From an uncultured Pseudomonadales bacterium (lineage in GTDB: Bacteria; Patescibacteriota; Microgenomatia; UBA1400; PJMF01), in contig CAZMXT010000001.1 in NCBI GenBank assembly GCA_964570365.1, positions 73,440-137,439 of the forward strand: 64,000 bases of DNA. Direction: 5' to 3'. The translations under genes and the position numbers were made by a program. Positions 13,667 to 39,415 of the stretch are shown here, piece by piece (position 1 is the stretch's first letter; the number at the start of each line of letters is the position of its first letter). The notes below the pieces were generated by a model, which did no database searches, was not told where the DNA came from, and saw nothing but the letters and a program-made list of their open reading frames with translations.

Positions 13667-14875
13667 TTAAGATACCCAATATCCCTGGATAAATAATACA
13701 GTATTAATCAGTAATAGAATGCACAAAATGCCTAGAAAGCATAGTGTAATCAGTGATTTTTTTGGTAAGAAATGAACGAGGACTAAGAAAATGGGGAAGC
13801 AAACTAATAAAAATCTGGGCATGCTTAAGAAGTTTCCCGTTAAAGTGGGGAGTAAAAATACACCAAGTCCAAAAAATACCCACGACGGTCTTACGTATTT
13901 GGCAGCTAATACTAGTAGAGGAAGCCCTAAAGTACCTGCCAAAAATTCATTCACCACAGTAAAGTACCGCCAGTTAAATGGCCGGAAGGTAAGCAGCGTC
14001 TTGAGCGATCTCCACCAGGTTTGGGGATATGTTATGAAGCCTTCTTGCCTACCCGCTCCAAAATCAGCCTGGACATGCAAAAAGTACAACGGATCTTTAA
14101 ACTCCTGCTGTAGAAAAAACATATAACTCAAAAGTCCTACGCTACTGCACAGAATCAGGACTGCTTGGGGCAATGATTTTTGGAAAAAGCTTTTTATAAG
14201 CTCAACGCTAAGAATTATCTTCTTTTTTTGCTGGCTCTGCTTTTCATAAAATTGAAGAGCAAGTTCAATGAGTAAAGCCGGAATCAAGAAGATTCCTACC
14301 ACCCGGGTAGCAGCAGCCAACATCGCAAAAAGACTAGCTCTAAACCACCAGCCCTTTCTGGCTGTATAAAATGAGCTAATAACTAATAAGAGAAATAATG
14401 ACTCAGTATAAAGAGCCCCTAAGAAAAAAGCTGTCGGGAAGAGAAAGAGTAGTAAGACTGCAAGCCATGCTTTATCTTTATCAAAAAATTCTTTGACAAA
14501 TGCATACCATACCCAAGCCAATAACAAACTAAAAACATTTGTTAGGACTAAACCACCTGCCAAAGAAATTAAGCTGGAGCCAAAGGTAAGATGCAAGAAA
14601 CCCAATATAATGTAGGGAAACAAAGGGAAAAAAGCCTGAACTAAACCGAACCCCACATATCCTTCAGCAGCAATCGTTAGATAATGAACTCCATCAAAGT
14701 TTGCCCAACTAAAAAGCCAACGAGGTAAATGTGTGCTTGGCAAAATAGTATCAAAGTAAGGAAACGATGGCTGATAAAGTAAAAAGCTGTCAGCAAAAAA
14801 ACTTAAACCAAATAGAGTTACCCGCCATATAATAAAAAAAAGGGTGATGAGAGCCAGCTCTTTTTTACTAAGCAT
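13667..14875 (-). CDS. polytopic membrane protein, candidate mannosyltransferase of the PIG-V/DUF2029-like GT-C type
   Basis: A 402-aa protein that is hydrophobic throughout. Its loop motif WANFDGVHYLTIAAEGY resembles the conserved loop of PIG-V/GT87-type membrane mannosyltransferases. This is recalled from memory, not searched. Confidence 0.45.
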   Translation of the reverse strand: MLSKKELALITLFFIIWRVTLFGLSFFADSFLLYQPSFPYFDTILPSTHLPRWLFSWANFDGVHYLTIAAEGYVGFGLVQAFFPLFPYIILGFLHLTFGSSLISLAGGLVLTNVFSLLLAWVWYAFVKEFFDKDKAWLAVLLLFLFPTAFFLGALYTESLFLLLVISSFYTARKGWWFRASLFAMLAAATRVVGIFLIPALLIELALQFYEKQSQQKKKIILSVELIKSFFQKSLPQAVLILCSSVGLLSYMFFLQQEFKDPLYFLHVQADFGAGRQEGFITYPQTWWRSLKTLLTFRPFNWRYFTVVNEFLAGTLGLPLLVLAAKYVRPSWVFFGLGVFLLPTLTGNFLSMPRFLLVCFPIFLVLVHFLPKKSLITLCFLGILCILLLINTVLFIQGYWVS

Positions 14876-16565
14876 TTATGATTTTTCTTCTAAACTGACT
14901 GATGCCACAGAGCGCTATTGCGATCAGAGTAAGTCCACTTGCTGAGTTCCCGATCAAACGCGGCCAAGTCCGTTGAGTGAAGCGTGTTTGAACTTGGTAC
15001 TGACCGGCTGGTAAAGTATATGCGAGCCTTCCTTTTATTTGTTCATTATTACTATAGCTCAGCTTGAGCCAACTCTGAACACCCACAGCTTTGACTCTTG
15101 TCTCCCAACCTGGGAAGTTCATAGTTGGCTCAGTTACTATTGAAGGCTCGGTTAACTGAAGTTCATAGTTACGATATGACCCCTTCCAGTTGTACACATT
15201 GATACTGCCTTTCCCCTCCAGTAAAGTAGGTGCTGGACTCCAGTCCGATATCTCGGTGTAGGTAAAGTTTTGAGGCAAGTTTTCGTTAGCTGTAGTTGTA
15301 CTTTGAGGAAAGTTATCATAACCAACAGACTCTTTATGAAAGTACGATACTGCCTCCACTCTAGTAAAAGTTAGGAGTTGAAGTAGTAATAGAATAACAA
15401 AGCAACTTTTTCCCCATTTTCCTAGTTGCTGATACACAAATGCAGCTAATGGAATCAAAAATACCACTAAGAATAAAGTTAACCGCCAAGGAAATTGTAT
15501 AAAATTAGCTAAGGGAACCAGCTGCCAAATCATTGCACTGAATTGAAGCTGCGCAACTAGAAGAATCCAAGCTATTCCTGTGCAAAAAAGCAGAGTTCTT
15601 TTACCATGCAGAGGAATTTTTTTCCAGATCTTAATTCCGATTACCTCAGTTGCTGCTACCAAAACAAAGAATTGGAGTAATCCAACGCTAAATGCTGCTG
15701 AGTCAATCCTCCCAGGATAAGAGAAACCAGACTTTAGTGGTGAAAAAAGGAGCTGTTTTAGAGTTGGGAAATGTTGCAAAAACCCTTGTGATATTCCCGC
15801 CCCATTAATCACTGTATATTTTTGCTCTAATAATGCTGGCAGCCAAAACCAAAGAGAAAGCAGACCTGCTAAGACAAGAACAATACTAAAATTACTCCAC
15901 ATCTTGGTTTTTTTTCCAAACCTCAACAACCCATAGGTGAACAGGAGCGGTGTCCCAAACAGAACAGTCACATTATGGGAAAGAAAAAATGCGGCTAAAA
16001 GGAAAACCAAAATAAGTTCAAACTTGAGACCTGGTGTCTTTGCCTTCTGAGCAATAGTGTCAATTCCAAGTAAGAGCCAAGGAAACAAGCTCAAAGCTAG
16101 TATCTCACCAATACTGCCACGGAAAAAAAATAACTGCAAAATATATGGGCTGGCAGCGAAGACTCCAATCCCAAAACGTCGGCTAGAAAGGTCAAATCCT
16201 AGCAGCTTTAACCAAAACCAAGCTCCAATCAAACCACTCACAATTGCTGTAGCAGCAAGTATTTTAAAAGTCAGCTCATACGAGACTTTGGCAAAAGAAA
16301 AAGGCAGTGACAGAATATTGGCTAACGGATAATTAAAGTTAAACACCGGATATCCGTAGTGATTCATAAGATTGGGAGCAAAACGAGGTGGAAACTGACC
16401 CTCACGCACCGCCGCCTTATAGTTCGCAAAACGAGCTAAGTGGTTCTCCCCATCGTGGGTAGTAGGAAAATCTGAGTGGAGAAAAACACGAGTAACAAAG
16501 AAAGCTAAAAATACAATCCAGCCAATAGTGGTGAGCATAGATTTAGCTAAAAGTTTTTTACGCAT
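14868..16565 (-). CDS. large polytopic membrane protein, GQFP-RW motif family (GT-C candidate; paralog of 32270 and 35399)
   Basis: N-terminal loop THDGENHLARFANYKAAVREGQFPPRFAPNLMNHYGYPVFNFNYPL. The same motif layout recurs in two other ORFs in the window. The membrane core is followed by a C-terminal domain of about 150 aa. Confidence 0.6.
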   Translation of the reverse strand: MRKKLLAKSMLTTIGWIVFLAFFVTRVFLHSDFPTTHDGENHLARFANYKAAVREGQFPPRFAPNLMNHYGYPVFNFNYPLANILSLPFSFAKVSYELTFKILAATAIVSGLIGAWFWLKLLGFDLSSRRFGIGVFAASPYILQLFFFRGSIGEILALSLFPWLLLGIDTIAQKAKTPGLKFELILVFLLAAFFLSHNVTVLFGTPLLFTYGLLRFGKKTKMWSNFSIVLVLAGLLSLWFWLPALLEQKYTVINGAGISQGFLQHFPTLKQLLFSPLKSGFSYPGRIDSAAFSVGLLQFFVLVAATEVIGIKIWKKIPLHGKRTLLFCTGIAWILLVAQLQFSAMIWQLVPLANFIQFPWRLTLFLVVFLIPLAAFVYQQLGKWGKSCFVILLLLQLLTFTRVEAVSYFHKESVGYDNFPQSTTTANENLPQNFTYTEISDWSPAPTLLEGKGSINVYNWKGSYRNYELQLTEPSIVTEPTMNFPGWETRVKAVGVQSWLKLSYSNNEQIKGRLAYTLPAGQYQVQTRFTQRTWPRLIGNSASGLTLIAIALCGISQFRRKIINA

Positions 16566-16571
16566 CTTGGT

Positions 16572-17660
16572 CTATTTGCTTGGAAAAAGCGAGTGATAAA
16601 CCTTAACTGTTTCTAGTGCGGTCTTTGCCCAACTGAACTCTTTACTCCATTTATAACCAGCTCTGACTCTTTCTTCTCTGCGAGTTTTCGACCAGCTCAG
16701 CACTTGTTTAATACCATTAGCTAATGACTCCGCATCATCTTCAACATACTCTGCCACTTCACCCCCTACTTCAACAAGTGACGAACTTCTGACTGCCACC
16801 ACGGGCGTGCGACACTGCATTGCTTCTAAAATTGGCAAGCCAAAACCTTCATAGAGTGATGGCTGGACATAGACTTGAGCACCAGCATAAACAGCAGCCA
16901 ATTCATTCGTAGCAGCAGCTGAAAGTTCAGTCAAGAAGTGAACTCTGTCAAGGACGTTACTCAGAGCTAGTTGAGTTTCAATGGCTTTCCATTCTGGAAT
17001 ATCTTGTGGAATAAAGTTTCGACCTACACATACTAAGTGAAGATGAGGCGGAAAGTACTTCATGGCCTTAATGAGTTGAGGAATATTCTTATTGTAATTA
17101 ATATCTCCCACATACAACACATACTCTTTGGGCAGTTGGTATTTCTTCATTGTCGTTAGAAGCACTTTTTCTTCAGGCTGTTGGAGCTCTGGATTAGCCG
17201 CTAAGTACACAACGTGAATCTTCTCCCTTCTGATATGTAAGTGTTTCACAATATCCTCTTTTGAACTCAACGAATCTGTGATAATCGCATCAGCTTTTCG
17301 TAGCGACAGCAACTGTCTAAAAAAGGTAAGCTTGCCTTTTTTTCCTGGAGGATACTGCTTAGGAAACTTCAAGGGGATTACATCATGAACTGTAACCACA
17401 CTTTTGGAACCTCTAAAAAATGGTAGAGTAGGAAAAAATAAATCAAAGTATGGGTAATGAACTAGGCTTTGCGATCCAGCTACCTTTGCTTTTAAAATCT
17501 TTTGAGATTTGCGCTCTGCAGAACTTTCTAACTGAATTACTTTCAAGTTATTTACTTGCTCTAGTTCTGCCGCTAAAAAACGCGTATACATGCCAACGCC
17601 TCTGCCGGAGTTTTCATTCACAAGCGGAGAAGTGTCAAGAAAGATGGTGATCTCGTTCAT
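16572..17660 (-). CDS. GT4 family glycosyltransferase (GT-B fold)
   Basis: The C-terminal signature YVQPSLYEGFGLPILEAMQCRTPVVAVRSS matches the EX7E region of GT4 enzymes. Confidence 0.85.
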   Translation of the reverse strand: MNEITIFLDTSPLVNENSGRGVGMYTRFLAAELEQVNNLKVIQLESSAERKSQKILKAKVAGSQSLVHYPYFDLFFPTLPFFRGSKSVVTVHDVIPLKFPKQYPPGKKGKLTFFRQLLSLRKADAIITDSLSSKEDIVKHLHIRREKIHVVYLAANPELQQPEEKVLLTTMKKYQLPKEYVLYVGDINYNKNIPQLIKAMKYFPPHLHLVCVGRNFIPQDIPEWKAIETQLALSNVLDRVHFLTELSAAATNELAAVYAGAQVYVQPSLYEGFGLPILEAMQCRTPVVAVRSSSLVEVGGEVAEYVEDDAESLANGIKQVLSWSKTRREERVRAGYKWSKEFSWAKTALETVKVYHSLFPSK

Positions 17661-18429
17661 AAATTTCCCATAACTTTAAGTACGCTACAGCATGATGCAA
17701 TCCACTAAAAATAGCAAAAACAAACCCCGCTGCTCCATCAAGTAAGCCTTTGTGCCGGAAAAAGATCATAAGAAAAGTAAAGACTGGCTTCCAAATCAAG
17801 AACTGAGCTGCCGTCAAAATATTCACCTTCGTACCAAGCTCTTTTAGTTGAGTACTTTTGAAGGTGGTATATGTGTTGAACTTGCGAAGGTACTCACTAA
17901 AGTTATGGTTACCATAATGAAGTAGGTGACCCTTTGCCCAAGCAACTTCCCCTTTTACTACCATTTGTTCATGCACGTCTTTCTGAGGAAGCTTGGCGAG
18001 TCCTTTTCGGTACAAACGAATTACCGCATCCGGATACTGACCTCCTTTAGAAAGAAACCTCCCTAAGAACCAGTTCTTCCGTTTAATCCACCACCCAGCT
18101 GGAAGGGCTGACTCAGATGAAGGTTTTTGAATCTCCTGATGAAGCACCTGAATGAATGCAGCCAATTCATCATCTACTACTTCGTCGGCATCTAACTGCA
18201 GAATCAAGTCGCCAGTTGCTAAGTCCATTGCTTGTTGCTTATTAATATGAAAGTTTGCTTTATTGGTGGTGGCCGTAACTTTAGCACCCAACTTTTCTGC
18301 CAACTCTACTGTTTTATCCTCAGACTCTCCGTCTACCACAATAATTTCATCTGCAAAACTTTTGACTGCGAGGAGACAGCGTGTAATATTTTTTTCTTCA
18401 TTGTGGGTAGCAAGGACGACTGAGATCAT
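17635..18429 (-). CDS. GT2 family glycosyltransferase
   Basis: It has MISVVLATHNEEKNITRCL...IIVVDGESEDKT...LDADE, a GT-A fold with DxD-like motifs. Confidence 0.8.
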   Translation of the reverse strand: MISVVLATHNEEKNITRCLLAVKSFADEIIVVDGESEDKTVELAEKLGAKVTATTNKANFHINKQQAMDLATGDLILQLDADEVVDDELAAFIQVLHQEIQKPSSESALPAGWWIKRKNWFLGRFLSKGGQYPDAVIRLYRKGLAKLPQKDVHEQMVVKGEVAWAKGHLLHYGNHNFSEYLRKFNTYTTFKSTQLKELGTKVNILTAAQFLIWKPVFTFLMIFFRHKGLLDGAAGFVFAIFSGLHHAVAYLKLWEIYERDHHLS

Positions 18430-18854: not shown

Positions 18855-18864
18855 AATTTTTTCT

Positions 18865-22177: not shown

Positions 22178-22234
22178 TTATTGATCATAGCATTTCTCAT
22201 TGCGAGTGGGAAAAGAGACAGGTAAGATGATCTG

Positions 22235-23485
22235 ATGACTTCGTTCCGTCCTATTCATTTATTGATCGTGATTTACTTAATCTCCAGATTATTCATTTGG
22301 GTTTTTCGACCCCAAGCCTTTAGCGAAATCATTTACAGTTATATGCCTTATGCCCATCTCTGGGCCAGTGGCACCAAACCATACCTGGAGCAGTGGTACG
22401 AATATCCACCAGTGACAATTCCGTTGTTTTACATACCCCATATCATTGATCGAGAAACTCGTGAAACTCCTTTTCACTTGAACTACCTACAAAGTTATCG
22501 AGGTTTGCTATTGATTGTTGATCTACTCCTTTTTGGATTGATCTGGAAAACACTACAAAAGCAAAAAGTTGCCTTACCAATTTTTATTACTGCTGTACTC
22601 TATTACATTGGGGTTACCACAAAAGCTCACCACTTTCTGTATGACACCATGGACCTGACTTTTGCCGCTTCGCTCACTCTAGCAGCAGCCGCACCAGTGA
22701 TTTTATCTGCCAAAACTGCCAGCTTTTTTTCTTGGCTGGGCACTTTTTTGGCAATTGGCTTAAAGTACGTCAACGCCCCCCTAATACCGATCTATGCTTT
22801 GTTAGAGCGACAGAACTGGAAACGACTAGTGGTGTCTGGCTTTATTGCCTTTGCGTTAGTCTGGGCATTGCCACTCAGTTTGTTCCGATCTTCCTTGTCT
22901 GTCAGCTTGGTTTACCACGATATGCGCGGAATTCAAGTTGATAGTGCAGCAGCCATTCTCCTCAGAACTATTGACCAATTTACTCAGAGTGAGCGGATCA
23001 TCGAGATTTATAAGAATTATGAAGTTACTGGCCCGCTGACGGATCAAGCCAAGAGCGTAATGAAAGTTCTTTTTCCAGCTTCACTGCTTATTTACGTAGC
23101 TATCGCATGTTGGTTAGTGCTTAAGGTAACTCACAAACGCAGTCAGTTTCTCCGTATTCATCTCACTCTAGGGTATATCTTACTTTTTATGCTCACTGGA
23201 AAAGTGCTTTCGACCCCATTTCTCCTCTGGCATATTCCTTTACTCGCCATCTACCCTTTTACAAGCCTCAAGAGGCAACTGAGCTTTCTCGTCCCTTCGG
23301 CCATCATTATCTTTGTATCAATGACTCAAGTTTCCAATGATCTGATTGGTATTTTTCCTATTCCCTTAATTGTAGGATGGATTCGAACCCTCGCTTTTGG
23401 CTTTCTGTTTATTCAATGGCTCTGTCTGACTAGAGATGAACAAAGAGAAGCTCATTCTCCAGTTACTAGTGCAACTGATAAATAA
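22235..23485 (+). CDS. polytopic membrane protein, candidate GT-C (GT87/DUF2029-like)
   Basis: A hydrophobic 416-aa protein. Its loop motif YEYPPVTIPLFYIPH resembles the YPP-containing loop of GT87-like membrane glycosyltransferases. This is recalled from memory. Confidence 0.45.
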   Translation: MTSFRPIHLLIVIYLISRLFIWVFRPQAFSEIIYSYMPYAHLWASGTKPYLEQWYEYPPVTIPLFYIPHIIDRETRETPFHLNYLQSYRGLLLIVDLLLFGLIWKTLQKQKVALPIFITAVLYYIGVTTKAHHFLYDTMDLTFAASLTLAAAAPVILSAKTASFFSWLGTFLAIGLKYVNAPLIPIYALLERQNWKRLVVSGFIAFALVWALPLSLFRSSLSVSLVYHDMRGIQVDSAAAILLRTIDQFTQSERIIEIYKNYEVTGPLTDQAKSVMKVLFPASLLIYVAIACWLVLKVTHKRSQFLRIHLTLGYILLFMLTGKVLSTPFLLWHIPLLAIYPFTSLKRQLSFLVPSAIIIFVSMTQVSNDLIGIFPIPLIVGWIRTLAFGFLFIQWLCLTRDEQREAHSPVTSATDK

Positions 23486-25118: not shown

Positions 25119-25124
25119 GCTTGT

Positions 25125-26777: not shown

Positions 26778-27697
26778 ACTTGATCCCTTTTCCACCACCA
26801 GTATGGCTGCCATAAAATAAAAAGCATTTTTTGAGTCAAACTTCCATTTCTCCAAGTAAAGACACGGGCATTGCGCCAGCTCATTTGAGTAATTCTCTGC
26901 TCACCAAAAACCTCCGCGTTAGTCGTTTCATGATAATGTTTCACTCTAGCCTGATTCTCAAAGAGAACTTGCCAACCTTTTTTCCTGGCTCTAAAAGATA
27001 AATCTACGTCTTCCCAATAGGCTGGGTAGTAAACTGGGTCAAACCCTTTTAGCTCTAACCACTTCTGTTTATCAAAGATGCCACTCCCCCCGCTCACCCA
27101 GGCCGTAGGGCCGGATGCAAACTCTGTGGCTCGTGCATGGATGAAAAGTCCTCTCTCAAACCACAACGAATTTTTGCCTCCCACCACCTCTTCTTCTCCT
27201 TCAAGCGTTTGCTCTTTTTCTAGACAGCCCACCGCAAACACTGCTGAGTTATTAAAATGAGGCAGAAGATACTTGAGAATATCGGCAGCTGGCTGAACGT
27301 CAGTATTAATCAAAAAAACTAGTTCATGTTTTGCTTGCTCTACAGCCCGATTACAGGTTGCCGCAAAGCGAAGATTCTGTCGGTTTTTTATCAAAGTAAT
27401 TGTTACACTTTTATTTGGATGAGTTAACTCAGTTCGCATCATCTCAAACTCTGAGGAAGAAGATTTTTGAGTATTGTCCGCTTGAGCATCGGAGAAGAAC
27501 TGCTGTTTTAACCACTCGCAGCTATTGTCTGAACTGGCATCGTCCATAATGACAATTTCATCCCCACTTCGGAGCATGGCAATTACCGAGGCTAAGTTAT
27601 CTGCCAGTAACGCCTGACCATTAAAGTTTGGAATAATAGCAGAGACATTACGACCACCATAAACTGGGTCGTTCGCAAAAGAAGAAATCGAAGTCAT
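26774..27697 (-). CDS. GT2 family glycosyltransferase
   Basis: It has VSAIIPNFNGQALL...IVIMDDASSDNS...NTDV and a C-terminal YWEDVDLSFRARKKGW region typical of GT2 enzymes. Confidence 0.8.
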   Translation of the reverse strand: MTSISSFANDPVYGGRNVSAIIPNFNGQALLADNLASVIAMLRSGDEIVIMDDASSDNSCEWLKQQFFSDAQADNTQKSSSSEFEMMRTELTHPNKSVTITLIKNRQNLRFAATCNRAVEQAKHELVFLINTDVQPAADILKYLLPHFNNSAVFAVGCLEKEQTLEGEEEVVGGKNSLWFERGLFIHARATEFASGPTAWVSGGSGIFDKQKWLELKGFDPVYYPAYWEDVDLSFRARKKGWQVLFENQARVKHYHETTNAEVFGEQRITQMSWRNARVFTWRNGSLTQKMLFILWQPYWWWKRDQV

Positions 27698-27704
27698 AAT
27701 GCTA

Positions 27705-28802
27705 TTACCTTTTTATCATTTGTTGCAAGGTCTTTTCAAAGCGATCTTGCGAGAACTGCCTTACTTGCGCTCTAGCCATTTCTCTAAGCGATGTACAAAG
27801 TTGTGTGTCCGTAATTAATTTTGTGGTTAACTCCAAACATTCATTTTCTGTCTGCCATAAATATGCAGTGAACTCAGCGCCTACTACCTCAGTTTGACCA
27901 CCCTTACCTACCACGACTGGGATGCAACCGCTAGCCATTGCTTCTCCTGTACTAATTCCAAAGTGCTCTACTTTTTCAGGCGCCTCAGCTTCATTTACCT
28001 CAAACCCAGCCGCGTGCCAATAAATACTCGCTTTAGCATACCATTCCAAGAGTTGACTACGCGCCACATCGTGCAGAAAAGTAATTGGCAAGTCTTTTGC
28101 AAGTTGATAAAGCTGACTCACATACTCTTGATCTTCTATCCCACCAATCAAAACTAGCCTCCAATCTGCCATCAGCTCCGGGTTAGACTGCAACATCTTC
28201 TGAAAGATTTTTATCAAAAGATCTTGCCTTTTTGCATGTGTATGTTGAAAAAAACGCCCCACACTTAAAATCACTTTTTGTTTTTTTGGAGCATGCTGGA
28301 AACAATCCTCCTCTATCACAGGATAGTGAACAAACGGAACAGAAGTCTGCCAAGCTTTTTCAACTACGTTTTGAGTAAACTGTGAGTTCGCATTTTTAAC
28401 AGACCAATTTTTGAGCTTTAATCTTTCCAAAACTGAGGTTTTACGGTTGGTGAATGGAATCTGGATGTGTAAAACATTATTCTTTGCTGCACTAAAAAAT
28501 AAACTGCCGTCAGTGACGTAGTAGAGCAAGTCATACTTGCGAGTCCAATCTAGCTTCCTAAAAAAAGAAGTCTGAGTGCCTAACGGGCTAGCAATAAACC
28601 CAACTACATCAAGTGAAGAGCCTAAGAAGCGACTGTAGTTCTGGCGATATTGAGCCACTTGGTCAGAGGTCAGTGGGTCAGTGGCAGAGATGGCTACTTC
28701 AACTTGGTGTGAGTTGCCCAAAGCCTGTGCGACTTTAAATAAATATCTTTCGCCGCCACCAAAGTGTTTGGGAATATATGGCGAGTATAAACAAACCCTC
28801 AT
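27705..28802 (-). CDS. GT-B fold glycosyltransferase (GT4-like)
   Basis: The C-terminal domain contains EHFGISTGEAMASGCIPVVVGKGG, a GT4/GT1-like nucleotide-sugar binding region. It is 365 aa. Confidence 0.7.
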   Translation of the reverse strand: MRVCLYSPYIPKHFGGGERYLFKVAQALGNSHQVEVAISATDPLTSDQVAQYRQNYSRFLGSSLDVVGFIASPLGTQTSFFRKLDWTRKYDLLYYVTDGSLFFSAAKNNVLHIQIPFTNRKTSVLERLKLKNWSVKNANSQFTQNVVEKAWQTSVPFVHYPVIEEDCFQHAPKKQKVILSVGRFFQHTHAKRQDLLIKIFQKMLQSNPELMADWRLVLIGGIEDQEYVSQLYQLAKDLPITFLHDVARSQLLEWYAKASIYWHAAGFEVNEAEAPEKVEHFGISTGEAMASGCIPVVVGKGGQTEVVGAEFTAYLWQTENECLELTTKLITDTQLCTSLREMARAQVRQFSQDRFEKTLQQMIKR

Positions 28803-29680
28803 GTCACCTCTTCGTCTTTTTTGAGTTCTTTCTTCTCAACAGCAAGCACAGGTGATAAGTCTTCAGGTTTGACACTTTTCCATTGGTTATTAATTTCTAA
28901 CTCTACCCGTTGATACTTCTCGGCTAACGACGGTTTCTGTTGTAATTCCCAAACTTGGATGTAAACCAAAATTCTATTTATTGCCTGCACTAGCGCCTCA
29001 ATCAGACCCTCTAAACCATCCTGGTAGCCTTTTTTGAGAACGGCGCGTCGAAAGAACTCCATGCTCCCTTTTCGTAGCAGCGTCATAAAAGAAACTGGCG
29101 CAACACTTGATTCATACAAAAGTCTAGCTTCGATGGGGGTCCAACTCGCACTCTTGAGTAAGCCATCTACCGTATTTCGGTGGGTCAGATGTACAAGCGA
29201 ACTATGCAGCTGTACTGATTCACCAGTAAAAACTGGACTCTCATGAATATCACCTTGCCACTTCTCTAGGGCACTCAATCTAAATACTCGGGTAATAAAC
29301 TCACTTTGCCAGCCACCGGATTGAAAGACTTTTCCATACATCATGTTCTGTCGATGGAAAACCAAGGCATTTGCGGTACTGGTCTCAGTTTGGACCAGAA
29401 TTTCTTTAGCGAGTCGTGGAGTCACTCGTTCATCAGCATCAATGTAAAAAACCCACTCAGAACTGGCAGCCTCTTTGCCAATATTTCTCTTCTCTGAAAA
29501 AGAGTGAGTCTGTGAGGCAATTACTTTCGCTCCAGCTCGCTCTGCTATCCCAACAGTTTGATCTTCAGAGTCTGAGTCCACCACGATAATCTCGCTGCAC
29601 CATTGCAGTGCTTCCAAGCAATTCGCGAGCATGAGCTCTTCGTTTTTGGTGATGATGATGGCTGAGATGCTAGGTCGCAT
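28799..29680 (-). CDS. GT2 family glycosyltransferase
   Basis: It has MRPSISAIIITKNEELMLANCLE...IIVVDSDSEDQT...IDADE and is a paralog of 17635-18429. Confidence 0.8.
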   Translation of the reverse strand: MRPSISAIIITKNEELMLANCLEALQWCSEIIVVDSDSEDQTVGIAERAGAKVIASQTHSFSEKRNIGKEAASSEWVFYIDADERVTPRLAKEILVQTETSTANALVFHRQNMMYGKVFQSGGWQSEFITRVFRLSALEKWQGDIHESPVFTGESVQLHSSLVHLTHRNTVDGLLKSASWTPIEARLLYESSVAPVSFMTLLRKGSMEFFRRAVLKKGYQDGLEGLIEALVQAINRILVYIQVWELQQKPSLAEKYQRVELEINNQWKSVKPEDLSPVLAVEKKELKKDEEVT

Positions 29681-29687
29681 GGTATAG

Positions 29688-30692
29688 CTAGATGATTGTC
29701 TGCTTACCCATTCTACCTAAAAGAAAATCAATTGTCGCCCGTCGTTCCGTTGCGTCTCCTAGAACTAGGAAGCGCAGAGCTAAGCGAAAAATATTTGCCT
29801 GGAAGAAGAAGATCTCCGGAACTGCTTTCCAGGCAGGTTTGGGAATTTTTTTGGTTTTTGTTGCAAGAGGGTTGTGCATTTTCTGCAATTCTTGCATAGA
29901 GTAGGAGTATCTTAAGAAAAAGTAAAATCTATTTCGAGTTTGATAGTATCTATTGAGCTCAGAGCCTGCTCCACCTGAGGAACTGGCGTTGGCATGCCAA
30001 ACTTTGGCATCTGGCGCATAAAGAACCTTAAATCCAGCTTGTCGAACTCGGATACTCCAATCCACATCCTCTAAGTAGAGGAAGTACTTTCCCTCAAGTA
30101 CTCCTACTTTTTCGATGACTGAGTAGGGCATGAGCACACAGCAGCCGGTAGCAAAATCTGTTTCTTGAGCTTGATCAAAGTGGCCGCGATCTAGTTCATC
30201 CACTCCCCGATGAAACGCATCCAAGTTTGCCCAGTCAATACTTCCCCCTGCATACCACAAGACTTTTCCTTTTTGCGATGGGGTATAGCTAGCATGGTGG
30301 TACTCGTTACCTGGGGCAAAGTAGATTTTGGGAGTAATCATCCCAACTTTTTCGCTTGACTCAGCGCAGGCGATCAGCTTAGTAAGAAACTCTTCATCTT
30401 GGGTTGTGTCATTGTTTAAAATCAAGATATAATCCGGCTTCTTTTCTCGAGCTACATACTCAATTCCTAAGTTGTTACCATCAGTAAACCCTAAGTTGGT
30501 ATCACTTCTGACAATCACGGTATTTTTAGGCAGCTGTTTCTGAGGAATGATCAGCGCGTCTTTAGAGCCATTATCAACTACCACTGTTGAGACGGTGTAA
30601 CTCTTTCTCTTTATTTTACGCAGTGAATCCAAGCACGCCCGAGTGTCTTGATCGTTATTGTAGTGAACAATGATAATAGCAACGTGAACCAT
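29688..30692 (-). CDS. GT2 family glycosyltransferase
   Basis: It has VAIIIVHYNNDQDTRACLDSL...VVVDNGSKD...ILNNDT...YLEDVDWSIR, a classic GT2 layout. Confidence 0.85.
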   Translation of the reverse strand: MVHVAIIIVHYNNDQDTRACLDSLRKIKRKSYTVSTVVVDNGSKDALIIPQKQLPKNTVIVRSDTNLGFTDGNNLGIEYVAREKKPDYILILNNDTTQDEEFLTKLIACAESSEKVGMITPKIYFAPGNEYHHASYTPSQKGKVLWYAGGSIDWANLDAFHRGVDELDRGHFDQAQETDFATGCCVLMPYSVIEKVGVLEGKYFLYLEDVDWSIRVRQAGFKVLYAPDAKVWHANASSSGGAGSELNRYYQTRNRFYFFLRYSYSMQELQKMHNPLATKTKKIPKPAWKAVPEIFFFQANIFRLALRFLVLGDATERRATIDFLLGRMGKQTII

Positions 30693-30724
30693 GATTGATT
30701 ATTGTACCGCACTTCTGAGGTGCT

Positions 30725-31666
30725 TTACCTTTTTAATCGGCGTCGGAGTTGCCACCAGAGCTTCATCAAGCCATTTGTGTGCTGGACTTGCCAATCAGCA
30801 ATCCAGTAGTTAAGGTCTCTTTGAGAACTTCGCAACCCGGCAATAATATCTCTAGGGACATTCTGTGGATCAGTTGTCTTGAAACCATGTTGCTGCCAGC
30901 TCTTGAGTACCACGCTTAACTGATAAAAAGATTGTAGGTAGCTCAGACTCAAACCATGCATACCCTCTTCAATTCCTTTTTCCGCAAAGCATCTGCGAAA
31001 AAACTCATCCCAGAATGTCTTAATTGTTTTGGCAGGCGAGGTAGAAAATGAAGCTACACTCCCACTAGTAAGCTCGATGGTGCTATAGCGATTTAACCGT
31101 TCGATATACTGCTCGATTGTTTGATAGTGGTGGTGCCGAATTGCCCACTCTTCTTTGGCAGCGAGCTCCTCACAACGTCCGGAGACTTGAGGGGCTGCGT
31201 GAATTGTGTCTTCCCACTGTACGGCACCTCGTCGAAACAAGCGCAGTTGATAGTCTGGCCACCAGCCAGTTTTTTCAATCCAACGATCAAAAATAATGTT
31301 TTTCCGAGGTAAAAAGTATGCGAATGTTTCAGAGTTTTTGTCCTCAACTATAGCGAGAATTTTCTGAGCAAGTTGAGGTGGCACTTCTTCATCAGCATCA
31401 ATCACCAACACCCATTCACCTTTTGCCTTACTAACTGCAAAGTTCCGGGCTGGCTCTACATACTGAACATCTTTATGGGGAAATATATCAGCTGAAAAAT
31501 CTTTAGCTATCTCCAAGGTGTTGTCAGTACTCTCCATATCAACGACAACAATCTGATCTACAAACATCAAAGAACTTAAACACCTTCTCAGCGTTTCCGC
31601 AGAGTTTTTTGTGTTTATAACAGCCGAAATTTTGACGGAATTTTTGTGTTCAATCACATGCCTCAC
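30725..31666 (-). CDS. GT2 family glycosyltransferase
   Basis: It has ISAVINTKNSAETLRRCLSSL...IVVVDMESTDNT...VIDADEE. Confidence 0.8.
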   Translation of the reverse strand: MRHVIEHKNSVKISAVINTKNSAETLRRCLSSLMFVDQIVVVDMESTDNTLEIAKDFSADIFPHKDVQYVEPARNFAVSKAKGEWVLVIDADEEVPPQLAQKILAIVEDKNSETFAYFLPRKNIIFDRWIEKTGWWPDYQLRLFRRGAVQWEDTIHAAPQVSGRCEELAAKEEWAIRHHHYQTIEQYIERLNRYSTIELTSGSVASFSTSPAKTIKTFWDEFFRRCFAEKGIEEGMHGLSLSYLQSFYQLSVVLKSWQQHGFKTTDPQNVPRDIIAGLRSSQRDLNYWIADWQVQHTNGLMKLWWQLRRRLKR

Positions 31667-32271
31667 TTATTAATTTTTATGACTGTCTCATTTAACCACA
31701 TTTTATCTTTTAAGAACTCCACTTCATGTTTGCGGTAATCAAAGAGCCCATTTGCCCGACGAAGGTCATCAGAACTACGTAAAAAAAATAGCTGGATATT
31801 TCCAGCACCATCTTGGAAAACTGCAGTACCCTCATTTTGGAAGCGAGTTGTTTGGTTTGGAAGCTTTCTTTCCACCAGTAACTCTGAGAGGGAGGGTCGG
31901 CCACGCACAATGATCTCCTGACTACTTAATAACGGCGAGTGAAATTCTAGCAAGACTGTCTCTTGAGCTTCAGGATTGGGAATCGGGTTCTTCATCTCTA
32001 GTGTGCCAGTTAAAGTAACCAGCTCGCGGTTAAAGGTAAAGTTGCCAGGAGAATAATGTTCTCGGAACTTCCAGTACTTTTGCGGATCTAGAGTTTGGGT
32101 TTCTTCCAGTTGCTTTAGAAAAGTCTCTAGAGTCATTGCCCTGCGCGCTGCAAAAAGTTGGTGCGAGAAGCTGGGTACTAGGAGCAAGGCCAGCAACAAC
32201 ATACTTAGACCCACGAAAGCAGTAAAAAATACTGAGACGGATTTTTTAGCTCTAGGATACAATGAGGACAT
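31663..32271 (-). CDS. membrane-anchored hypothetical protein (N-terminal TM plus soluble domain)
   Basis: A 202-aa protein with one N-terminal TM helix (VFFTAFVGLSMLLLALLLVP) and no recognised motif. Its start codon overlaps the start of the divergent 32270 gene (CATG). Confidence 0.45.
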   Translation of the reverse strand: MSSLYPRAKKSVSVFFTAFVGLSMLLLALLLVPSFSHQLFAARRAMTLETFLKQLEETQTLDPQKYWKFREHYSPGNFTFNRELVTLTGTLEMKNPIPNPEAQETVLLEFHSPLLSSQEIIVRGRPSLSELLVERKLPNQTTRFQNEGTAVFQDGAGNIQLFFLRSSDDLRRANGLFDYRKHEVEFLKDKMWLNETVIKINK

Positions 32272-33994
32272 GCGATTTTTAGCTCAGCAACTTTGGCGTA
32301 GCAAAGATATTTTATACTGTCTACTCCTTTTCATTGTAGCACTGGTTTTCTCCCTAGACCTCTTCTTACATCAGGGGCGGCCAGCTACTTTTGATGGACC
32401 AACTCACCTAACAACGATGGCTCAATTCTTCTTAGGGATGAAAGATGGGCAGTTCCCAGTCAGCTGGGCAGATGGCTTTGCAAACTATGGCATGCCTATT
32501 CCTTTGATTGCTCAGCAACTGACTTCTTACTTAGGTGGTGCATTCATTTTTTTTACTCGGGATGTGGTTTTGGCCTATAACCTGGTAGTATTGCTCGGAG
32601 CAGTCCTTTCTACTTGCTTTTTTTACGCTTTTCTACGCTTATTTTTTAAACAAGAAAGCTCCTTAGCGGGGAGTATTCTGTTCAGTTTAGCGCCCTATCG
32701 AATCATCAACATTTATACTCGTGGAGCCATCCCTGAATTTTTTGTGGCGGTTTTTATTCCCTTAATTGCGATTGGTATGGTCACTTTTTTTCGTGATAAA
32801 AAGAACTGGGGTTTACCCGTTTTTCTAATAGGACTGTGTGGACTAATTTTGAGTCACCCCATGATGCTCGTACCTGCCAGTTTTATCTTAGCTCCGGTCG
32901 CTCTGGTAGCCAGCTGGTCTTGCTGGAAAAACTGGCGTCAAGTACTTGTGATTGGCTTTTTGACTGGAGCCGCTTTTGCGCTTACTGCCTACTACTTGGT
33001 TCCGCTATTTGGAGAAATTAAGTATTTATATTATGGACAAGGAACCAAGCACTTTATTTCCAACAACTTCCTGACCTGGAAGAACTACTTCCAACCTGCA
33101 TGGCCGTACTACACTGCTACAGATATTGGACCACGCGGCCAGTACTTTCATCTTGGAACAGTGGAAATGGTGGCACTACTTGCCGGTGCTGTGGTCACCG
33201 TTATCCGCTTTATAAGAAAACCGCACCGAAACCTGACGGTGTTAGATGGCGCATTAATCGTCACCGGAGTTATTATTTTCTTCACTCTCTCTGTGTCTGA
33301 ACCGTTATACAGAGCTCTTTTACCATTAAATAATATTCAACATCCCTGGCGCATGTTAACTGCGCTGATTTTTTTGCCACCATTTATTTTGGCCTATCTT
33401 CTGGATCAAATGAAAGCTCTGCAAAAATACCAATACTGGTTGGCCGGCGCAGCCGTCCTCCTAATTTGTGGTCTTCGCTTCCCTCAGCTCTACGGCAAGA
33501 ATTATATCTGGTATCCAGATTCTTTTTACTACTTCACCCCGATTAACTTGCATGGCGAGGTCTTAAATACGATCTGGACCGGGAGCAGCAGAGACTACTC
33601 GATCCAGTCCCAAAAGGCTCAGATTATTGGCGGCAACGGGCAGATCGCACAGATGAACGTACTGACCGGCCAACGTCAGTATCAAGTTTCCGCCACGACT
33701 CCGATCCGAATGGTGGACTACACCTTCTACTTCCCTGGTTGGAAGGCATATGTAGATGGACAAGAAGTACCCATAGAGTTCCAAGATATGAATTACCGGG
33801 GCGTAATTACGTATCAAGTTCCAGAAGGAAACCATCAGGTAATGTTGCGTTTTGAAGATACGAAGATGAGACTCTTGGGTAAAGTGGTGACCGTATCTAC
33901 GGTGATCAGCCTAGTTATGATCTACTTTTGTCTTAGACTGCGTAACTCAGCAAAGAGTTTTTCCCGACCGAGCAAGAAGAAAACAGCTAAGTAA
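32270..33994 (+). CDS. large polytopic membrane protein, GQFP-RW motif family (GT-C candidate)
   Basis: N-terminal loop FDGPTHLTTMAQFFLGMKDGQFPVSWADGFANYGMPIPLIAQQL. It is a paralog of 14868 and 35399 and is 574 aa. Confidence 0.65.
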   Translation: MRFLAQQLWRSKDILYCLLLFIVALVFSLDLFLHQGRPATFDGPTHLTTMAQFFLGMKDGQFPVSWADGFANYGMPIPLIAQQLTSYLGGAFIFFTRDVVLAYNLVVLLGAVLSTCFFYAFLRLFFKQESSLAGSILFSLAPYRIINIYTRGAIPEFFVAVFIPLIAIGMVTFFRDKKNWGLPVFLIGLCGLILSHPMMLVPASFILAPVALVASWSCWKNWRQVLVIGFLTGAAFALTAYYLVPLFGEIKYLYYGQGTKHFISNNFLTWKNYFQPAWPYYTATDIGPRGQYFHLGTVEMVALLAGAVVTVIRFIRKPHRNLTVLDGALIVTGVIIFFTLSVSEPLYRALLPLNNIQHPWRMLTALIFLPPFILAYLLDQMKALQKYQYWLAGAAVLLICGLRFPQLYGKNYIWYPDSFYYFTPINLHGEVLNTIWTGSSRDYSIQSQKAQIIGGNGQIAQMNVLTGQRQYQVSATTPIRMVDYTFYFPGWKAYVDGQEVPIEFQDMNYRGVITYQVPEGNHQVMLRFEDTKMRLLGKVVTVSTVISLVMIYFCLRLRNSAKSFSRPSKKKTAK

Positions 33995-35406
33995 ACCAGC
34001 ACCGTTAAGATCATTCCAGAGACCATATTTGGAAAACTTCTGGACCACACCCCACTTAAACTCACCCCAACTAAGGCCATTGCCCCTGCAGCTACTAACT
34101 GTCGCCAGGTATTTTCCCAGACCTGAACTGGCAGTATCTTACGCACATACCAAATTGGTAACACGGAACTAAACGAGATAATAAATGCCGCAATTGCCAC
34201 TCCTTGAAAGCCAAACCACCAAATCATTAAAGGCGTTAAAATCCAGGTTAAAGAGGTCCACATAATCATTAACTTTAATGTCACATCAATCTTACCAATT
34301 GCACTCAGCGTATTGGTCAGGGGAGTAGAAATTGCTCCCCAGCCAATGCTTAAGGTAAACAGAATAAAGGTCAATAATGCTGGCTGCCACTTTTGATACT
34401 TCGCCACCAGTGATATGAAGGGTCCAATAAAAACACACATCCCAATGAGTAGTGGGAAAATGGAGAGTGAGATAAAAAATAAGGTTTTTTCGATTGCCTT
34501 GCGCAGCAGATTACGATCGTGTTGCAATCTTGAGTATGTGGGGAAGGTAATTGCAATCACGTTCTGGACCGTCAACTGGTAGGGAACTTGAGACCATTGC
34601 TTGGCAAAGTTAATGTAGCCAAATTCCTGTAAAGGCAAAAATAAGCCCAGGAAAAGATAAAAAAGCTGATCCTTAATCCTTGCTAGAAAATCATTGAGCT
34701 GGAACTTGGTACCCGTCCCCAGCATAGTCCGCAAAGCCACCCGATTGAGTGCAAAGCCAATTGGCCACCGTTGAATTAGATACATGACCAGTACTCCGAG
34801 TATAGAGCGCAGCAAAATCGCATACATATAGGACTGGACCCCGAAGCCATTTACGGCTAAATAAACCAAGATGCCATAGTACGTTAGCTGCTCAACTACC
34901 TGGGGAAAAACCATTTTAGAGAAATCTAACCTGCGTTCGAGAATTACTGAAGGAATAGTTTTTAAACTGGCTAAAGGGAAAGAGATACCCAAGGCGAGTA
35001 AAACGAATACGCCATTGGCGCCAATCTTTGGGGTTAAAACCCCACTCATCGCTAAACCTACCGTAATCAAGAAGATGAACCAAGATAAGATCTGCTGAAC
35101 CGTAAAAACGGTACGGTACTCGGTGACCGTCGGCGAGTCTTTTTTCTGAATCAGCGCAGACGCTAAACCAATATCAGAAAAAAACGTCAGTAAACCAATA
35201 ATGCTGGTCACCACTCCGTAAATGCCAAACTCTTGAACTGTTAGGTATGCTCCCAAGACAAAAGATGCACCTAAACCAATAAGGTGTAGCAGCAGTGTAC
35301 GAGCCATGTACGAGGCAGCCCCAGAAACGGATTTGCGCTTAATCTCTTGGACTTCTTCTGCGCCAATTCCTTCTAGCGAAGTTGTGACAGCAGCTGTTTC
35401 AGACAT
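33922..35406 (-). CDS. Wzx-like flippase / polysaccharide biosynthesis protein (MOP superfamily)
   Basis: It has about 12-14 predicted TM helices. The start is placed at MSETAAV (ATG 35404-35406), giving an 8-bp overlap with the upstream gene; the track's longer ORF starts at 35442. No soluble domain is present. Confidence 0.6.
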   Translation of the reverse strand: MSETAAVTTSLEGIGAEEVQEIKRKSVSGAASYMARTLLLHLIGLGASFVLGAYLTVQEFGIYGVVTSIIGLLTFFSDIGLASALIQKKDSPTVTEYRTVFTVQQILSWFIFLITVGLAMSGVLTPKIGANGVFVLLALGISFPLASLKTIPSVILERRLDFSKMVFPQVVEQLTYYGILVYLAVNGFGVQSYMYAILLRSILGVLVMYLIQRWPIGFALNRVALRTMLGTGTKFQLNDFLARIKDQLFYLFLGLFLPLQEFGYINFAKQWSQVPYQLTVQNVIAITFPTYSRLQHDRNLLRKAIEKTLFFISLSIFPLLIGMCVFIGPFISLVAKYQKWQPALLTFILFTLSIGWGAISTPLTNTLSAIGKIDVTLKLMIMWTSLTWILTPLMIWWFGFQGVAIAAFIISFSSVLPIWYVRKILPVQVWENTWRQLVAAGAMALVGVSLSGVWSRSFPNMVSGMILTVLVYLAVFFLLGREKLFAELRSLRQK

Positions 35407-37096
35407 TATTTTGTTTACTTTCTGTGTGGTGGAAGATAACATACCCGAGTAAGATAACTCCGCTAATCGCAGAAATCGTATCGGCTAAACTTCTAATTGG
35501 GGTACTGCCAAACTCAAAACCCAGTAAATGTTCACCCGCTGGCACGTCTGCGGCGATCGTACCGTGTTGACCCAGTCTTTTCACTAATGGCGTTTTGCCA
35601 TCCAGTTCTACCTGCCAACCTGGAAAGTCAGCCACCATCAGATCAAATGTCGCCGGACTCGTAAATGTAGTTCTAAATAACTTCTGATGTCCCCGATCGA
35701 CCAGCACCTCCACCTTTGACTCTGTACCTCCTGGAACTAAGTACTTTTCAGTTGGAGGTGTTAATTCTGAAGCCATCTGGATAGGAATATAATCTGGCAG
35801 AATACTGCTCATCTCGCTTCTAATCCGTTCTGGAGAACTGTAGTAAAAGCTATCCGTATTTTCTAAGTAGCTTTCGGGGCGAAAAAAGAACGTATTTCCA
35901 ATCAGCAACACTCCGCCAAGTAGCAGCACATATAAGTACCGGACCATTTTGTGTGTAATTAAAGTTACGCTTGCTCCAGCCAGTAGGGCGATAAAAACGG
36001 CGGCCACTGACAAATACCGCCAAGGGAACTGAACAAAGTGGAGCAAAGGAATGTGATCCCAGATTGGTTGGGACTTCAGCAACGTCATAAATAAACTCAG
36101 TCCCAGAAGAGCTAAAAGTACTGCATAGAATCCATTTCGGGAACGTAAGAATTGCTTGGGGGATAGAGTTTTTGCTCTGCGCAGCAACAACACTGCTAGA
36201 ACTATCAGAGCAATTATTTGGCCTGCACCCAAGAAAAAAGAAATATCATCTTGAGGCCCCCAGCTCGAACCGCCGTACTTCCAGTTGGCAGAAAAGAACT
36301 GACGAATATAGAGGAAGTGTTGCGAGTAATGGAAGTAGCCAGTCAGGATTTTATCAATTTGGGTAAATGACTTTTCGGCAAAAGAAGGAAGCAAGTAAAA
36401 GGCAGCACTACCAAGTGCTAGAAGGTAGGCACCTCCTACTTGAGCGATTGCTCTACCAATACTTAGCTGTTTATTTCTCTCCCAGAACCAAATCGCAACG
36501 GCAAAAGCCAAACTAAAAGGTAAAAAGATCAAAGTAGACACATTGTGGCTTAAAAACAGCGTAATCAAGCTGAGCGTTAAAGTAATGAACCCAGTCTTTT
36601 CTTTGCGATAAATCTGCAAAATTCCGAGCAAAATCCACGGCATGGCCATAATGGCCCATGACTCGCTCAAAGCTCCTCGGACAAACAGATTCACTGCCCG
36701 GTACGGAGCCAACGTAAGGCAAAAAGCGGTGAAAATGCCACCTGACCGACCAAACATTCTCGCACCTAATTTATAAGCTCCCAAGGCAGTACCCACAGCT
36801 GTCATCAAGTAAAGTAGCTTAATTGAAGCAACTAAATCAAAACCTAGCCAGTGCCAAAAGGCACCCACATAGTAAGGAAGTGGCGCATAAAACTCATATA
36901 AAGGCATTCCATATCCATACCCGAAGTTGGCTGACCAGCGCACTGGGAACTGACCTTCTTGAAGAGCCAAAAGCATCTCCCCAATTCTGGCTCCATGAAC
37001 ATAGTCATGAACTCGAAAAAAACTAGGATGCAGCAACGACCAGGAACTAGCCAAGACAGCGAGCAGGAGAGAAAAACCAACCAATACTTTTTTCAT
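35399..37096 (-). CDS. large polytopic membrane protein, GQFP-RW motif family (GT-C candidate)
   Basis: N-terminal loop FRVHDYVHGARIGEMLLALQEGQFPVRWSANFGYGYGMPLYEFYAPLPYY. It is 565 aa. Confidence 0.65.
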   Translation of the reverse strand: MKKVLVGFSLLLAVLASSWSLLHPSFFRVHDYVHGARIGEMLLALQEGQFPVRWSANFGYGYGMPLYEFYAPLPYYVGAFWHWLGFDLVASIKLLYLMTAVGTALGAYKLGARMFGRSGGIFTAFCLTLAPYRAVNLFVRGALSESWAIMAMPWILLGILQIYRKEKTGFITLTLSLITLFLSHNVSTLIFLPFSLAFAVAIWFWERNKQLSIGRAIAQVGGAYLLALGSAAFYLLPSFAEKSFTQIDKILTGYFHYSQHFLYIRQFFSANWKYGGSSWGPQDDISFFLGAGQIIALIVLAVLLLRRAKTLSPKQFLRSRNGFYAVLLALLGLSLFMTLLKSQPIWDHIPLLHFVQFPWRYLSVAAVFIALLAGASVTLITHKMVRYLYVLLLGGVLLIGNTFFFRPESYLENTDSFYYSSPERIRSEMSSILPDYIPIQMASELTPPTEKYLVPGGTESKVEVLVDRGHQKLFRTTFTSPATFDLMVADFPGWQVELDGKTPLVKRLGQHGTIAADVPAGEHLLGFEFGSTPIRSLADTISAISGVILLGYVIFHHTESKQNNV

Positions 37097-38190: not shown

Positions 38191-38390
38191 CACTTCGCCA
38201 ATCTCACCAGCCACTCAGTCACAAGCTAGTCATGCGGATATCTGTTACAATCATCATCATTCTGACTCTTCTAGTTGGCTACTACGAATCAACTTTATAT
38301 ATTTGGCAGACCAATCACCGAAGCGCGCTAGAAAAATTTAACGTCAATACAACCAAAGAATTACTTAAGTTAGAGGTGGAGACCAAATGA
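38187..38390 (+). CDS. small membrane protein (67 aa), hypothetical
   Basis: One TM helix ([14 protein letters not shown]). ATGA overlaps at both ends (38187-38190 and 38387-38390) suggest translational coupling between the LCP gene and rmlB. Confidence 0.35.
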
Positions 38391-39397: not shown

Positions 39398-39415
39398 AAA
39401 CTTCTAAGGAAAAAT

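Follow-up and report, generated by a model that had tools for sequence, protein, structure and literature searches.

In the 64,000-nucleotide stretch of contig CAZMXT010000001.1 analyzed here (the window), three genes encode large, mutually related membrane proteins: paralog A (14868..16565, reverse strand, 565 amino acids), paralog B (32270..33994, forward strand, 574 amino acids) and paralog C (35399..37096, reverse strand, 565 amino acids). From their homology and fold, the conserved motif, the predicted topology, and the synteny and fusions of their genes, we infer an activity, a lipid-linked donor and a glycan acceptor, and propose, with a probability of roughly 0.65, that A, B and C are GT-C-fold extracytoplasmic glycosyltransferases that use lipid-linked sugars in assembling or modifying a wall glycopolymer. 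All three are so far uncharacterized members of the known GT-C superfamily and of a known, unstudied Pfam family, PF10131 (PTPS_related).

Pairwise BLASTP over the full length of the proteins gave 26% identity between A and C (E 5e-27), 25% between A and B (E 3e-27) and 28% between B and C (E 6e-35), and phmmer searches with each of them against the 74 open reading frames (ORFs) of at least 80 amino acids in the window matched the other two only. As judged from sequence, A, B and C are true paralogs that form a distinct family within the window. This is in agreement with the initial annotation, which had proposed the paralogy (25–28% identity, E 5e-27 to 6e-35, in our comparisons), and whose coordinates and lengths for the three ORFs are exact and quoted loop peptides are present in the translations. 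It had also described a common motif, HD...GQFPxRW...GYGxP, in the N-terminal loop. A chance origin of this likeness was considered and rejected, since the proteins are homologous end to end. The motif lies in external loop 1, at 16326..16463 (reverse strand) in A (TTHDGENHLARFANYKAAVREGQFPPRFAPNLMNHYGYPVFNFNYP), at 32390..32521 (forward strand) in B (FDGPTHLTTMAQFFLGMKDGQFPVSWADGFANYGMPIPLIAQQL) and at 36869..37012 (reverse strand) in C (VHDYVHGARIGEMLLALQEGQFPVRWSANFGYGYGMPLYEFYAPLPYY), and its invariant aspartate is encoded by codons 16452-16454 (D38 of A), 32393-32395 (D42 of B) and 37004-37006 (D31 of C). As first written, the motif was idealized: B carries FD instead of HD, A has GQFPPRF and B GQFPVSW in place of GQFPxRW, and the motif ends in YG-x-P. 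It is nevertheless kept family-wide in a looser form, with the consensus [H/F]D-x2-3-H-x12-G-x-x-P-x-[R/S]-[W/F]-x6-7-YG-x-P in 138 sequences covering all three orthologue groups.

In these 138 sequences, the positions conserved at 99–100% (C numbering unless otherwise stated) are D31, H34, G63, P65, Y132, R140, G141, E145, H184, P237, E241, Q356, W359, R360, W494, G512, G521 and R535, with slightly lower conservation at Y418 (98%), G493 (97%) and G290 (96%). The loop-1 aspartate is present in 100% of the sequences and is followed, 3 or 4 residues later, by a conserved histidine, with this histidine and the glycine and proline of YG-x-P retained in ≥93% of them; in A numbering, D38, H42, G71 and P73 are invariant. 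In the GQFP element, the glycine is conserved at ≥90%, and the other three residues partly. The acidic loop-1 feature of the GT-C superfamily is present here as a lone aspartate followed by a conserved histidine, and not as DxD, in line with the conserved Asp/His and the motif retention among homologues that the initial annotation had anticipated. We note that the residues essential in mycobacterial AftD, K39, D41, E251 and K361 (bioRxiv 10.1101/2019.12.22.885152), have residue numbers similar to H30, D31, E241 and R360 of C, a likeness without residue-by-residue alignment that we treat as a lead only.

In Pfam searches, C and B scored 53.4 and 28.6 bits, respectively, against the PF10131 model, above its gathering cut-off of 26.4 bits, and A matched no model at E ≤ 1, PF10131 included. 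We place A in the family because it aligns with B and C along its whole length (E about 1e-27 to 1e-31) and because some A orthologues do match PF10131. The model, 621 positions long, aligned only over its first half (positions 1–316 for C and 10–300 for B), such that its C-terminal half, including the beta-sandwich region, is not covered by these alignments. In a C-centred alignment of 51 members, 43 matched PF10131 at E ≤ 1e-3, 19 matched PMT_2, and weak matches were seen to YfhO (16 members) and GT-C_AftD (12 members), indicating that the family sits among the GT-C families, nearest to PF10131. The PTPS_related name refers to a pterin synthase and has no connection with A-, B- or C-type proteins. 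The initial guess of a PTPS-related or YfhO-like group stands for B and C through PF10131, has no direct match to support it in A, and fails in its YfhO part: the YfhO model (PF09586) had no match to A, B or C at E ≤ 1, and gave weak matches in precomputed lists as well as in the alignment members counted above. PF11847 (GT-C_AftD) likewise had no match to A, B or C at E ≤ 1, as did the STT3 and PMT Pfam models, and NCBIfam gave no meaningful match to any of the three. PF10131 belongs to the Pfam GT-C clan (CL0111) and is listed as of unknown function (PMC7801869); the initial statement that no function is established for such proteins is therefore accurate for PF10131, within the searchable literature, and not for YfhO, which has been tied genetically to glycosylation of teichoic acids with N-acetylglucosamine (GlcNAc) (PMC5836110, PMC8035078). 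A single-sequence search of the PDB returned one spurious match (E 0.8) and nothing significant, and the family profile touched AftD as the sole PDB sequence, at a nonsignificant E of 0.16. Within the window, hhalign of the family profile against the PMT_2-like protein encoded at 18865-20478 gave a weak alignment (probability 6%, E 0.006) that pairs FGYGYGMP with FGDYKLP and VRGALSE with SRMAWEA, and that we again regard as a lead only.

The predicted structures carry the assignment further. AlphaFold2 models of C (pLDDT, the predicted local distance difference test, 91.7; pTM, the predicted template modelling score, 0.93) and A (pLDDT 90.3, pTM 0.92) show about 12 membrane helices (12 transmembrane helices are predicted in each of A, B and C), a first external loop that is long (65 residues by prediction) and contains two short helices, and a C-terminal beta-sandwich of ~80 residues (about residues 460–530) followed by the last membrane helix. 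The multi-helix membrane module and the long first external loop with juxtamembrane helices are those of a GT-C fold, for which the initial annotation had proposed a test. Among known structures, the model of C matches AftD (score 19.5, 428 residues aligned), AglB (19.4), STT3B (19.0), Pmt4 (18.9), ALG12 (18.3), ArnT (18.0) and AftA (17.2), and that of A matches ALG12 (20.5), AglB (20.1), STT3B (20.0) and AftD (19.8), with the AftD match giving the longest aligned stretch (416–428 residues). Taking the model helices and the positive-inside rule into account, both termini are predicted to be cytoplasmic, and all invariant polar residues fall on predicted outer loops, placing the invariant R/E/H/E/Q-W-R set and the loop-1 Asp/His on the predicted extracytoplasmic face.

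The presence of Pmt4, Pmt1/2, STT3, PglB, AglB and DPY19 among the best fold matches could also be read as pointing to protein glycosyltransferases, similar to PMT or to oligosaccharyltransferases, whose acceptors would be proteins at the cell surface (S-layer or pilus proteins, for example) and not a wall polysaccharide. In line with such a role, some relatives carry the NCBI annotation GT39, and the Wzx flippase encoded next to C shows similarity to the NCBIfam model 'O-glycosylation flippase', albeit at 83.7 bits, far under its cut-off of 720. We consider this role very improbable. Besides the lack of STT3 or PMT matches at E ≤ 1 given above, a WWDYG-type motif is absent from the translations of A, B and C, none of the three has a MIR domain, and the models of A and C have the beta-sandwich in place of a large C-terminal alpha/beta domain. 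Furthermore, this extracellular domain resembles carbohydrate-binding accessory domains, and the conserved neighbours of the family, an LCP (LytR-CpsA-Psr) ligase and dTDP-rhamnose genes, are typical of wall glycopolymers.

These neighbours bring us to the genomic setting, which we compared across 80 GTDB loci found with a C-centred profile (module 2) and 80 metagenome loci found with an A profile (module 1). Both gene modules are found conserved in Pacebacteria, Woesebacteria and Daviesbacteria as well as in related lineages. In the window, C is followed directly downstream by the gene of a Wzx-type (MOP family) flippase (33922..35442, reverse strand; Polysacc_synt_3 E 8e-47, with NCBIfam MOP flippase similarity), which overlaps C by 44 nt with the start at 35442, and by 8 nt in the JGI gene call. 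Module 2 has the recurrent order RmlD-RmlB-LCP (divergent), C, Wzx, GT2, GT2, GT2, GT4, GT2 and two PMT_2-like genes. In 60 of the 80 loci, the Wzx gene follows the PF10131-like gene directly and on the same strand (median distance between hit ends, 32 nt), and the LCP gene is divergently adjacent in 33, making C the conserved partner of a Wzx flippase. In Woesebacteria and Daviesbacteria, two to four tandem PF10131 copies precede Wzx. The counterparts in the window are the LCP ligase gene (37120-38190, forward strand, divergent from C; LytR_cpsA_psr E 2.6e-28; NCBIfam LCP domain 86.9 bits, cut-off 62.3), RmlB, RmlC and RmlD after it (38387-40829, forward strand; assigned from translations and synteny) and, downstream of C-Wzx, the rest of module 2 (23466..31666, reverse strand; assigned by Pfam and GTDB synteny), which holds GT2e, GT2d, GT2c, GT4b, GT2b and two PMT_2-like GT-C genes (25125-26855 and 23466-25118).

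In some relatives, the link between C and its flippase is covalent. The protein P0271 (1097 amino acids) fuses a C-like part (residues 12–576) to a Wzx part (610–1086), and its cluster holds three full-length members and one 344-residue fragment from NCBI, JGI, Logan and ENA. We therefore disfavor an assembly artefact, and consider the fusion to be probably real, as it recurs in full-length members from several sources. Further fusions join an A-like part to a PIG-V-like part (P0156, P0134 and P0145, 924–951 amino acids; 46% identity to the window protein 13667-14875), or two or three PF10131 modules in tandem (P0242 and P0263, about 1100 amino acids, and P0377, 1670 amino acids). The 3329-residue P0351, with two full PF10131 modules and several weak partial matches, is a single observation that might be an artefact. 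The fusions support a functional coupling of the partners, and, the tandem ones among them, independently fit a topology in which both termini are cytoplasmic.

The same neighbourhood can be read in another way, in which C-type proteins, and perhaps the whole family, are the polymerase or ligase of a Wzx pathway and either polymerize or transfer en bloc an undecaprenyl-diphosphate-linked repeat unit, in the role of Wzy or WaaL. The case for it begins with the position of C as the conserved membrane protein directly beside Wzx, fused to it in P0271, and with the five cytoplasmic GT2/GT4 genes next in the operon, a set apt for repeat-unit assembly. No polytopic protein of the window matches a Wzy-type or O-antigen-ligase-type Pfam model (PF04932 and related), even at E ≤ 5, although Wzy is very divergent and could escape Pfam or be encoded elsewhere in the genome. 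Diphosphate-linked donors are used by the GT-C enzymes PglB, AglB and STT3, and AglB and STT3B are as near to C in fold as AftD is; three invariant acidic residues and an arginine could, we surmise, bind a metal and the diphosphate. However, the two to four tandem copies ahead of Wzx in Woesebacteria and Daviesbacteria fit several linkage-specific transferases better, A-type genes have no adjoining Wzx, and monophosphate-linked sugars, too, have been given as substrates of Wzx/MOP flippases, namely of GacK (PMC8035078) and of the GT136 MATE flippase (PMC11127046). With this evidence on both sides, we judge the polymerase or ligase role unlikely. Its more specific form, in which a C-type PF10131 GT-C protein would replace Wzy in Patescibacteria by polymerizing or passing on the lipid-linked glycan leaving Wzx, is offered as speculation that we ourselves doubt. 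If it were true, the pair would constitute a Wzy-less flippase-transferase machine, translationally coupled or fused, of a kind not described so far, and the 13 or more GT-C enzymes of the glycan-assembly island described below would then put together most of the wall glycan on the outer side of the cell, in the manner of mycobacteria.

A sits in the other conserved module. The gene directly downstream, with an 8-nt overlap, encodes a PIG-V/Gpi18-like GT-C protein (13667..14875, reverse strand; Mannosyl_trans2 E 1.6e-7), and directly upstream, within 16572..18429 on the reverse strand, lie a GT4 gene (16572-17660) and a GT2 gene (17635-18429), both assigned by Pfam; two PMT_2-like genes (18865-22177) also belong to module 1. 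The dominant order in the 80 module 1 loci is that of the window, namely PMT_2-like, PMT_2-like, (NUDIX), GT2, GT4, A, PIG-V-like and epimerase, and the PIG-V-like gene follows A, or is fused to it, in most related loci. We also observe that the small NUDIX hydrolase gene of the window (18426-18854, reverse strand), between the PMT_2-like genes and GT2-GT4-A, recurs at the same place in the relatives L088 and L094; a second NUDIX gene lies at 52073-52666.

A minority order, found in six loci (L087, at 4000-8782, and L089, L091, L095, L111 and L152), consists of a WecA-like transferase, UbiA, an A-type gene and a PIG-V-like gene. The UbiA protein scores 224.8 bits against the NCBIfam decaprenyl-phosphate phosphoribosyltransferase equivalog (cut-off 207), and the A-type proteins are 46–50% identical to A. 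From its gene content, this operon hints at a polyprenyl-phospho-pentofuranose pathway of mycobacterial style in some Patescibacteria, and it raises the question of whether A-type proteins are pentofuranosyl (ribo- or arabinofuranosyl) transferases with a polyprenyl-phospho-pentofuranose donor, similar to AftD, AftA, Emb and GT136. That AftD is the sole PDB sequence touched by the profile, even if not significantly, and the fold match with the longest alignment, and that GT-C_AftD matches, albeit weak, occur in 12 of the 51 alignment members, would agree with such a specificity. We nevertheless think it rather improbable for A, as no UbiA-type gene was found in the window, and GT2 and GT4 genes precede A both there and in most related loci. 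In addition, A resembles the A-type proteins of either context to the same degree, meaning that the donor may not be set by the adjoining gene.

B (BLASTP to C, E 6e-35) has an orthologue group of its own at 42–52% identity. A B gene flanked by Wzx on one side and the GT2 genes on the other is seen in some genomes only (L008, L085). Its ATG at 32270 overlaps that of a divergent 202-residue ORF (31663-32271), leaving no intergenic space for a promoter, and at its 3′ end it shares 73 nt (33922-33994) with the convergent Wzx gene. B gives the impression of having been inserted into the C-Wzx-GT2 operon.

Returning to the glycosyltransferase role proposed at the outset, these observations can be arranged in the following scheme. 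A flippase would bring a polyprenyl-phosphate-linked sugar across the membrane, and A, B and C would take the sugar from its lipid donor at the outer face of the membrane, with the loop-1 aspartate (D38, D42 and D31, respectively) as the likely catalytic residue near the conserved histidine. They would then add the sugar to a rhamnose-containing glycopolymer of the cell wall as this grows, and the LCP enzyme would join the polymer to peptidoglycan. C would act directly with the Wzx flippase encoded beside it, and A in tandem with the PIG-V-like GT-C protein encoded beside it, with B as an accessory paralog placed into the operon of C in some lineages. With respect to a three-component system, the GT-C protein and the flippase are adjacent or fused, and the one clear gene of the lipid-sugar-synthase type lies ~8 kb from C, at 44792..45964 (forward strand); NCBIfam gave no type assignment for the GT2 genes beside C-Wzx. 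It encodes a GT2 domain (Glycos_transf_2 E 5.5e-29) and a GtrA/DPMS transmembrane domain (GtrA_DPMS_TM E 5.2e-16), and its best NCBIfam similarities, to PgfS, AglJ, ArnC and a Dol-P-hexose transferase, are all below the respective cut-offs. By sequence, it is a possible polyprenyl-phosphate-sugar synthase and thus a candidate source of donor for the GT-C enzymes. In the six loci of the minority order, donor supply may likewise be reflected in the WecA-like and decaprenyl-phosphate phosphoribosyltransferase genes ahead of the A-type gene. We note that it is followed by genes for a PMT_2-like GT-C protein, a GT2 protein, a 406-residue membrane protein without a Pfam family and a PMT-like GT-C protein, with which it may form a self-contained lipid-sugar glycosylation module.

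Several points weigh against our proposal. The candidate synthase gene is not only distant from C but also lacks synteny with any of the three paralogs across the loci compared, and searches of the window for an initiating phosphoglycosyltransferase (WecA/WbaP-type) and for a UbiA-type synthase or homologue found neither. Furthermore, fold and sequence do not separate donors that are monophosphate-linked monosaccharides from donors that are diphosphate-linked oligosaccharides, as AglB and STT3 score as AftD does, and the searchable literature holds no biochemical or genetic data on any PF10131 member.

The three paralogs are part of a glycan-assembly island of ~50 kb, at about 1391-51093 of the window. 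Its gene content includes at least seven GT2 and two GT4 genes, two Wzx-type flippases, the LCP ligase, RmlB, RmlC and RmlD, a UDP-glucose dehydrogenase, a GDP-mannose dehydratase, epimerases and the GT2+GtrA gene. Among its 18 polytopic membrane proteins, most are GT-C-like, of the PMT_2, PMT or PIG-V types in addition to the PF10131 trio. Four membrane paralogs of 537–576 amino acids cluster by sequence, one of which (18865-20478) matches PMT_2, and both PMT_2-like proteins of module 2 cluster with it; three more PMT_2/PMT-type proteins are encoded at 6991-8550, 45982-47523 and 49540-51093, and there is one PIG-V-like protein. A second pair of a GT-C gene followed by a Wzx-like gene, on the forward strand, consists of the PMT_2-type gene 6991-8550 and the Wzx-like gene 8547-9746, with a 4-nt overlap; it is arranged as C-Wzx, but with another GT-C family. 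Five polytopic proteins have no Pfam family at E ≤ 5 (1391-3049, reverse strand, and 3083-6625, 11292-12740, 22235-23485 and 48312-49532, forward strand). One of these is 1180 amino acids long, and the one encoded at 11292-12740 has a relative in the PMT_2-like protein of 45982-47523, with the other four being orphans.

Beyond the window, the orthologues of A, B and C form three separate groups at about 42–57% identity, compared to 25–28% between the paralogs, and orthologues of different paralogs probably often come from the same genomes. Taken together, this suggests that the duplications that gave rise to A, B and C predate the divergence of the lineages that carry them. The named sources of homologues are nearly all Patescibacteria (Pacebacteria/Paceibacterota, Woesebacteria, Daviesbacteria, Collierbacteria, Roizmanbacteria and Microgenomates). 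We note that many GTDB records with this cluster (L006, L008, L009, L042 and others) are titled 'uncultured Pseudomonadales', 'Gammaproteobacteria' or 'Vitreimonas sp.', and are probably mislabelled bulk submissions of metagenome-assembled genomes. A profile search of 1.84 billion representative proteins gave 20,980 clusters (50% identity) at E ≤ 1e-3 and 6,515 at E ≤ 1e-30, and PF10131, a family of this size (20,980 clusters), has no characterized member.

The Patescibacteria, or Candidate Phyla Radiation (CPR), are bacteria with genomes of about 1 Mb, very few of which have been cultured, and to our knowledge next to nothing is known of their envelope chemistry. The ~50-kb island represents a very large share of the genome of such an organism devoted to glycan assembly. 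The findings on A, B and C overturn no current view, and nothing in them is categorically new; the invariant residue set and the conserved partners (Wzx, the PIG-V-like GT-C protein, LCP and the rhamnose genes) make a large orphan GT-C family of CPR bacteria experimentally approachable.

Finally, we compare A, B and C with known systems, among which the Gac system and YfhO, the mycobacterial arabinan enzymes and the GT136 system are the nearest precedents in function. AftD is a protein of about 1400 amino acids with three carbohydrate-binding modules (CBMs) and an acyl carrier protein partner. A, B and C, at 565–574 amino acids, are far from this size and are about 12–14% identical to mycobacterial AftD and AftA, and the window has no UbiA/DPPR synthase gene. 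In the GT136 pentofuranose system of Citrobacter youngae (ORF12, ORF14 and ORF15), a UbiA-type synthase, a flippase of the MOP superfamily and a GT-C protein with a CBM carry out glycosylation after polymerization (PMC11127046). The six A-type loci that contain a UbiA-type synthase gene resemble it in gene context, and the window differs from it in that this gene was not found there. YfhO, which belongs to the same GT-C clan and is likewise a large polytopic protein with an extracellular domain, serves GlcNAc glycosylation of lipoteichoic acid in B. subtilis and S. aureus and of wall teichoic acid in L. monocytogenes, working with a GT2 lipid-sugar synthase and a flippase, and its extracellular domain is thought to bind the polymer (PMC5836110, PMC8035078). 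In contrast to A, B and C, its partner flippase is GtcA/GtrA rather than of the Wzx type, and the host here is a member of the Patescibacteria. In the streptococcal system, GacI, GacK (Wzx-type) and GacL (GT-C) act on the group A rhamnose polysaccharide, and LCP enzymes attach the product (PMC8035078). The C locus is similar to it in that a GT-C protein and a Wzx-type flippase are encoded with rhamnose-polysaccharide genes and with LCP attachment. It differs in that GacL is a GT-C protein of the PMT_2 type whereas C belongs to PF10131, in that no GacI/GacJ-like pair was identified next to C, and in that the C-Wzx pair is translationally overlapped and, in some relatives, fused.

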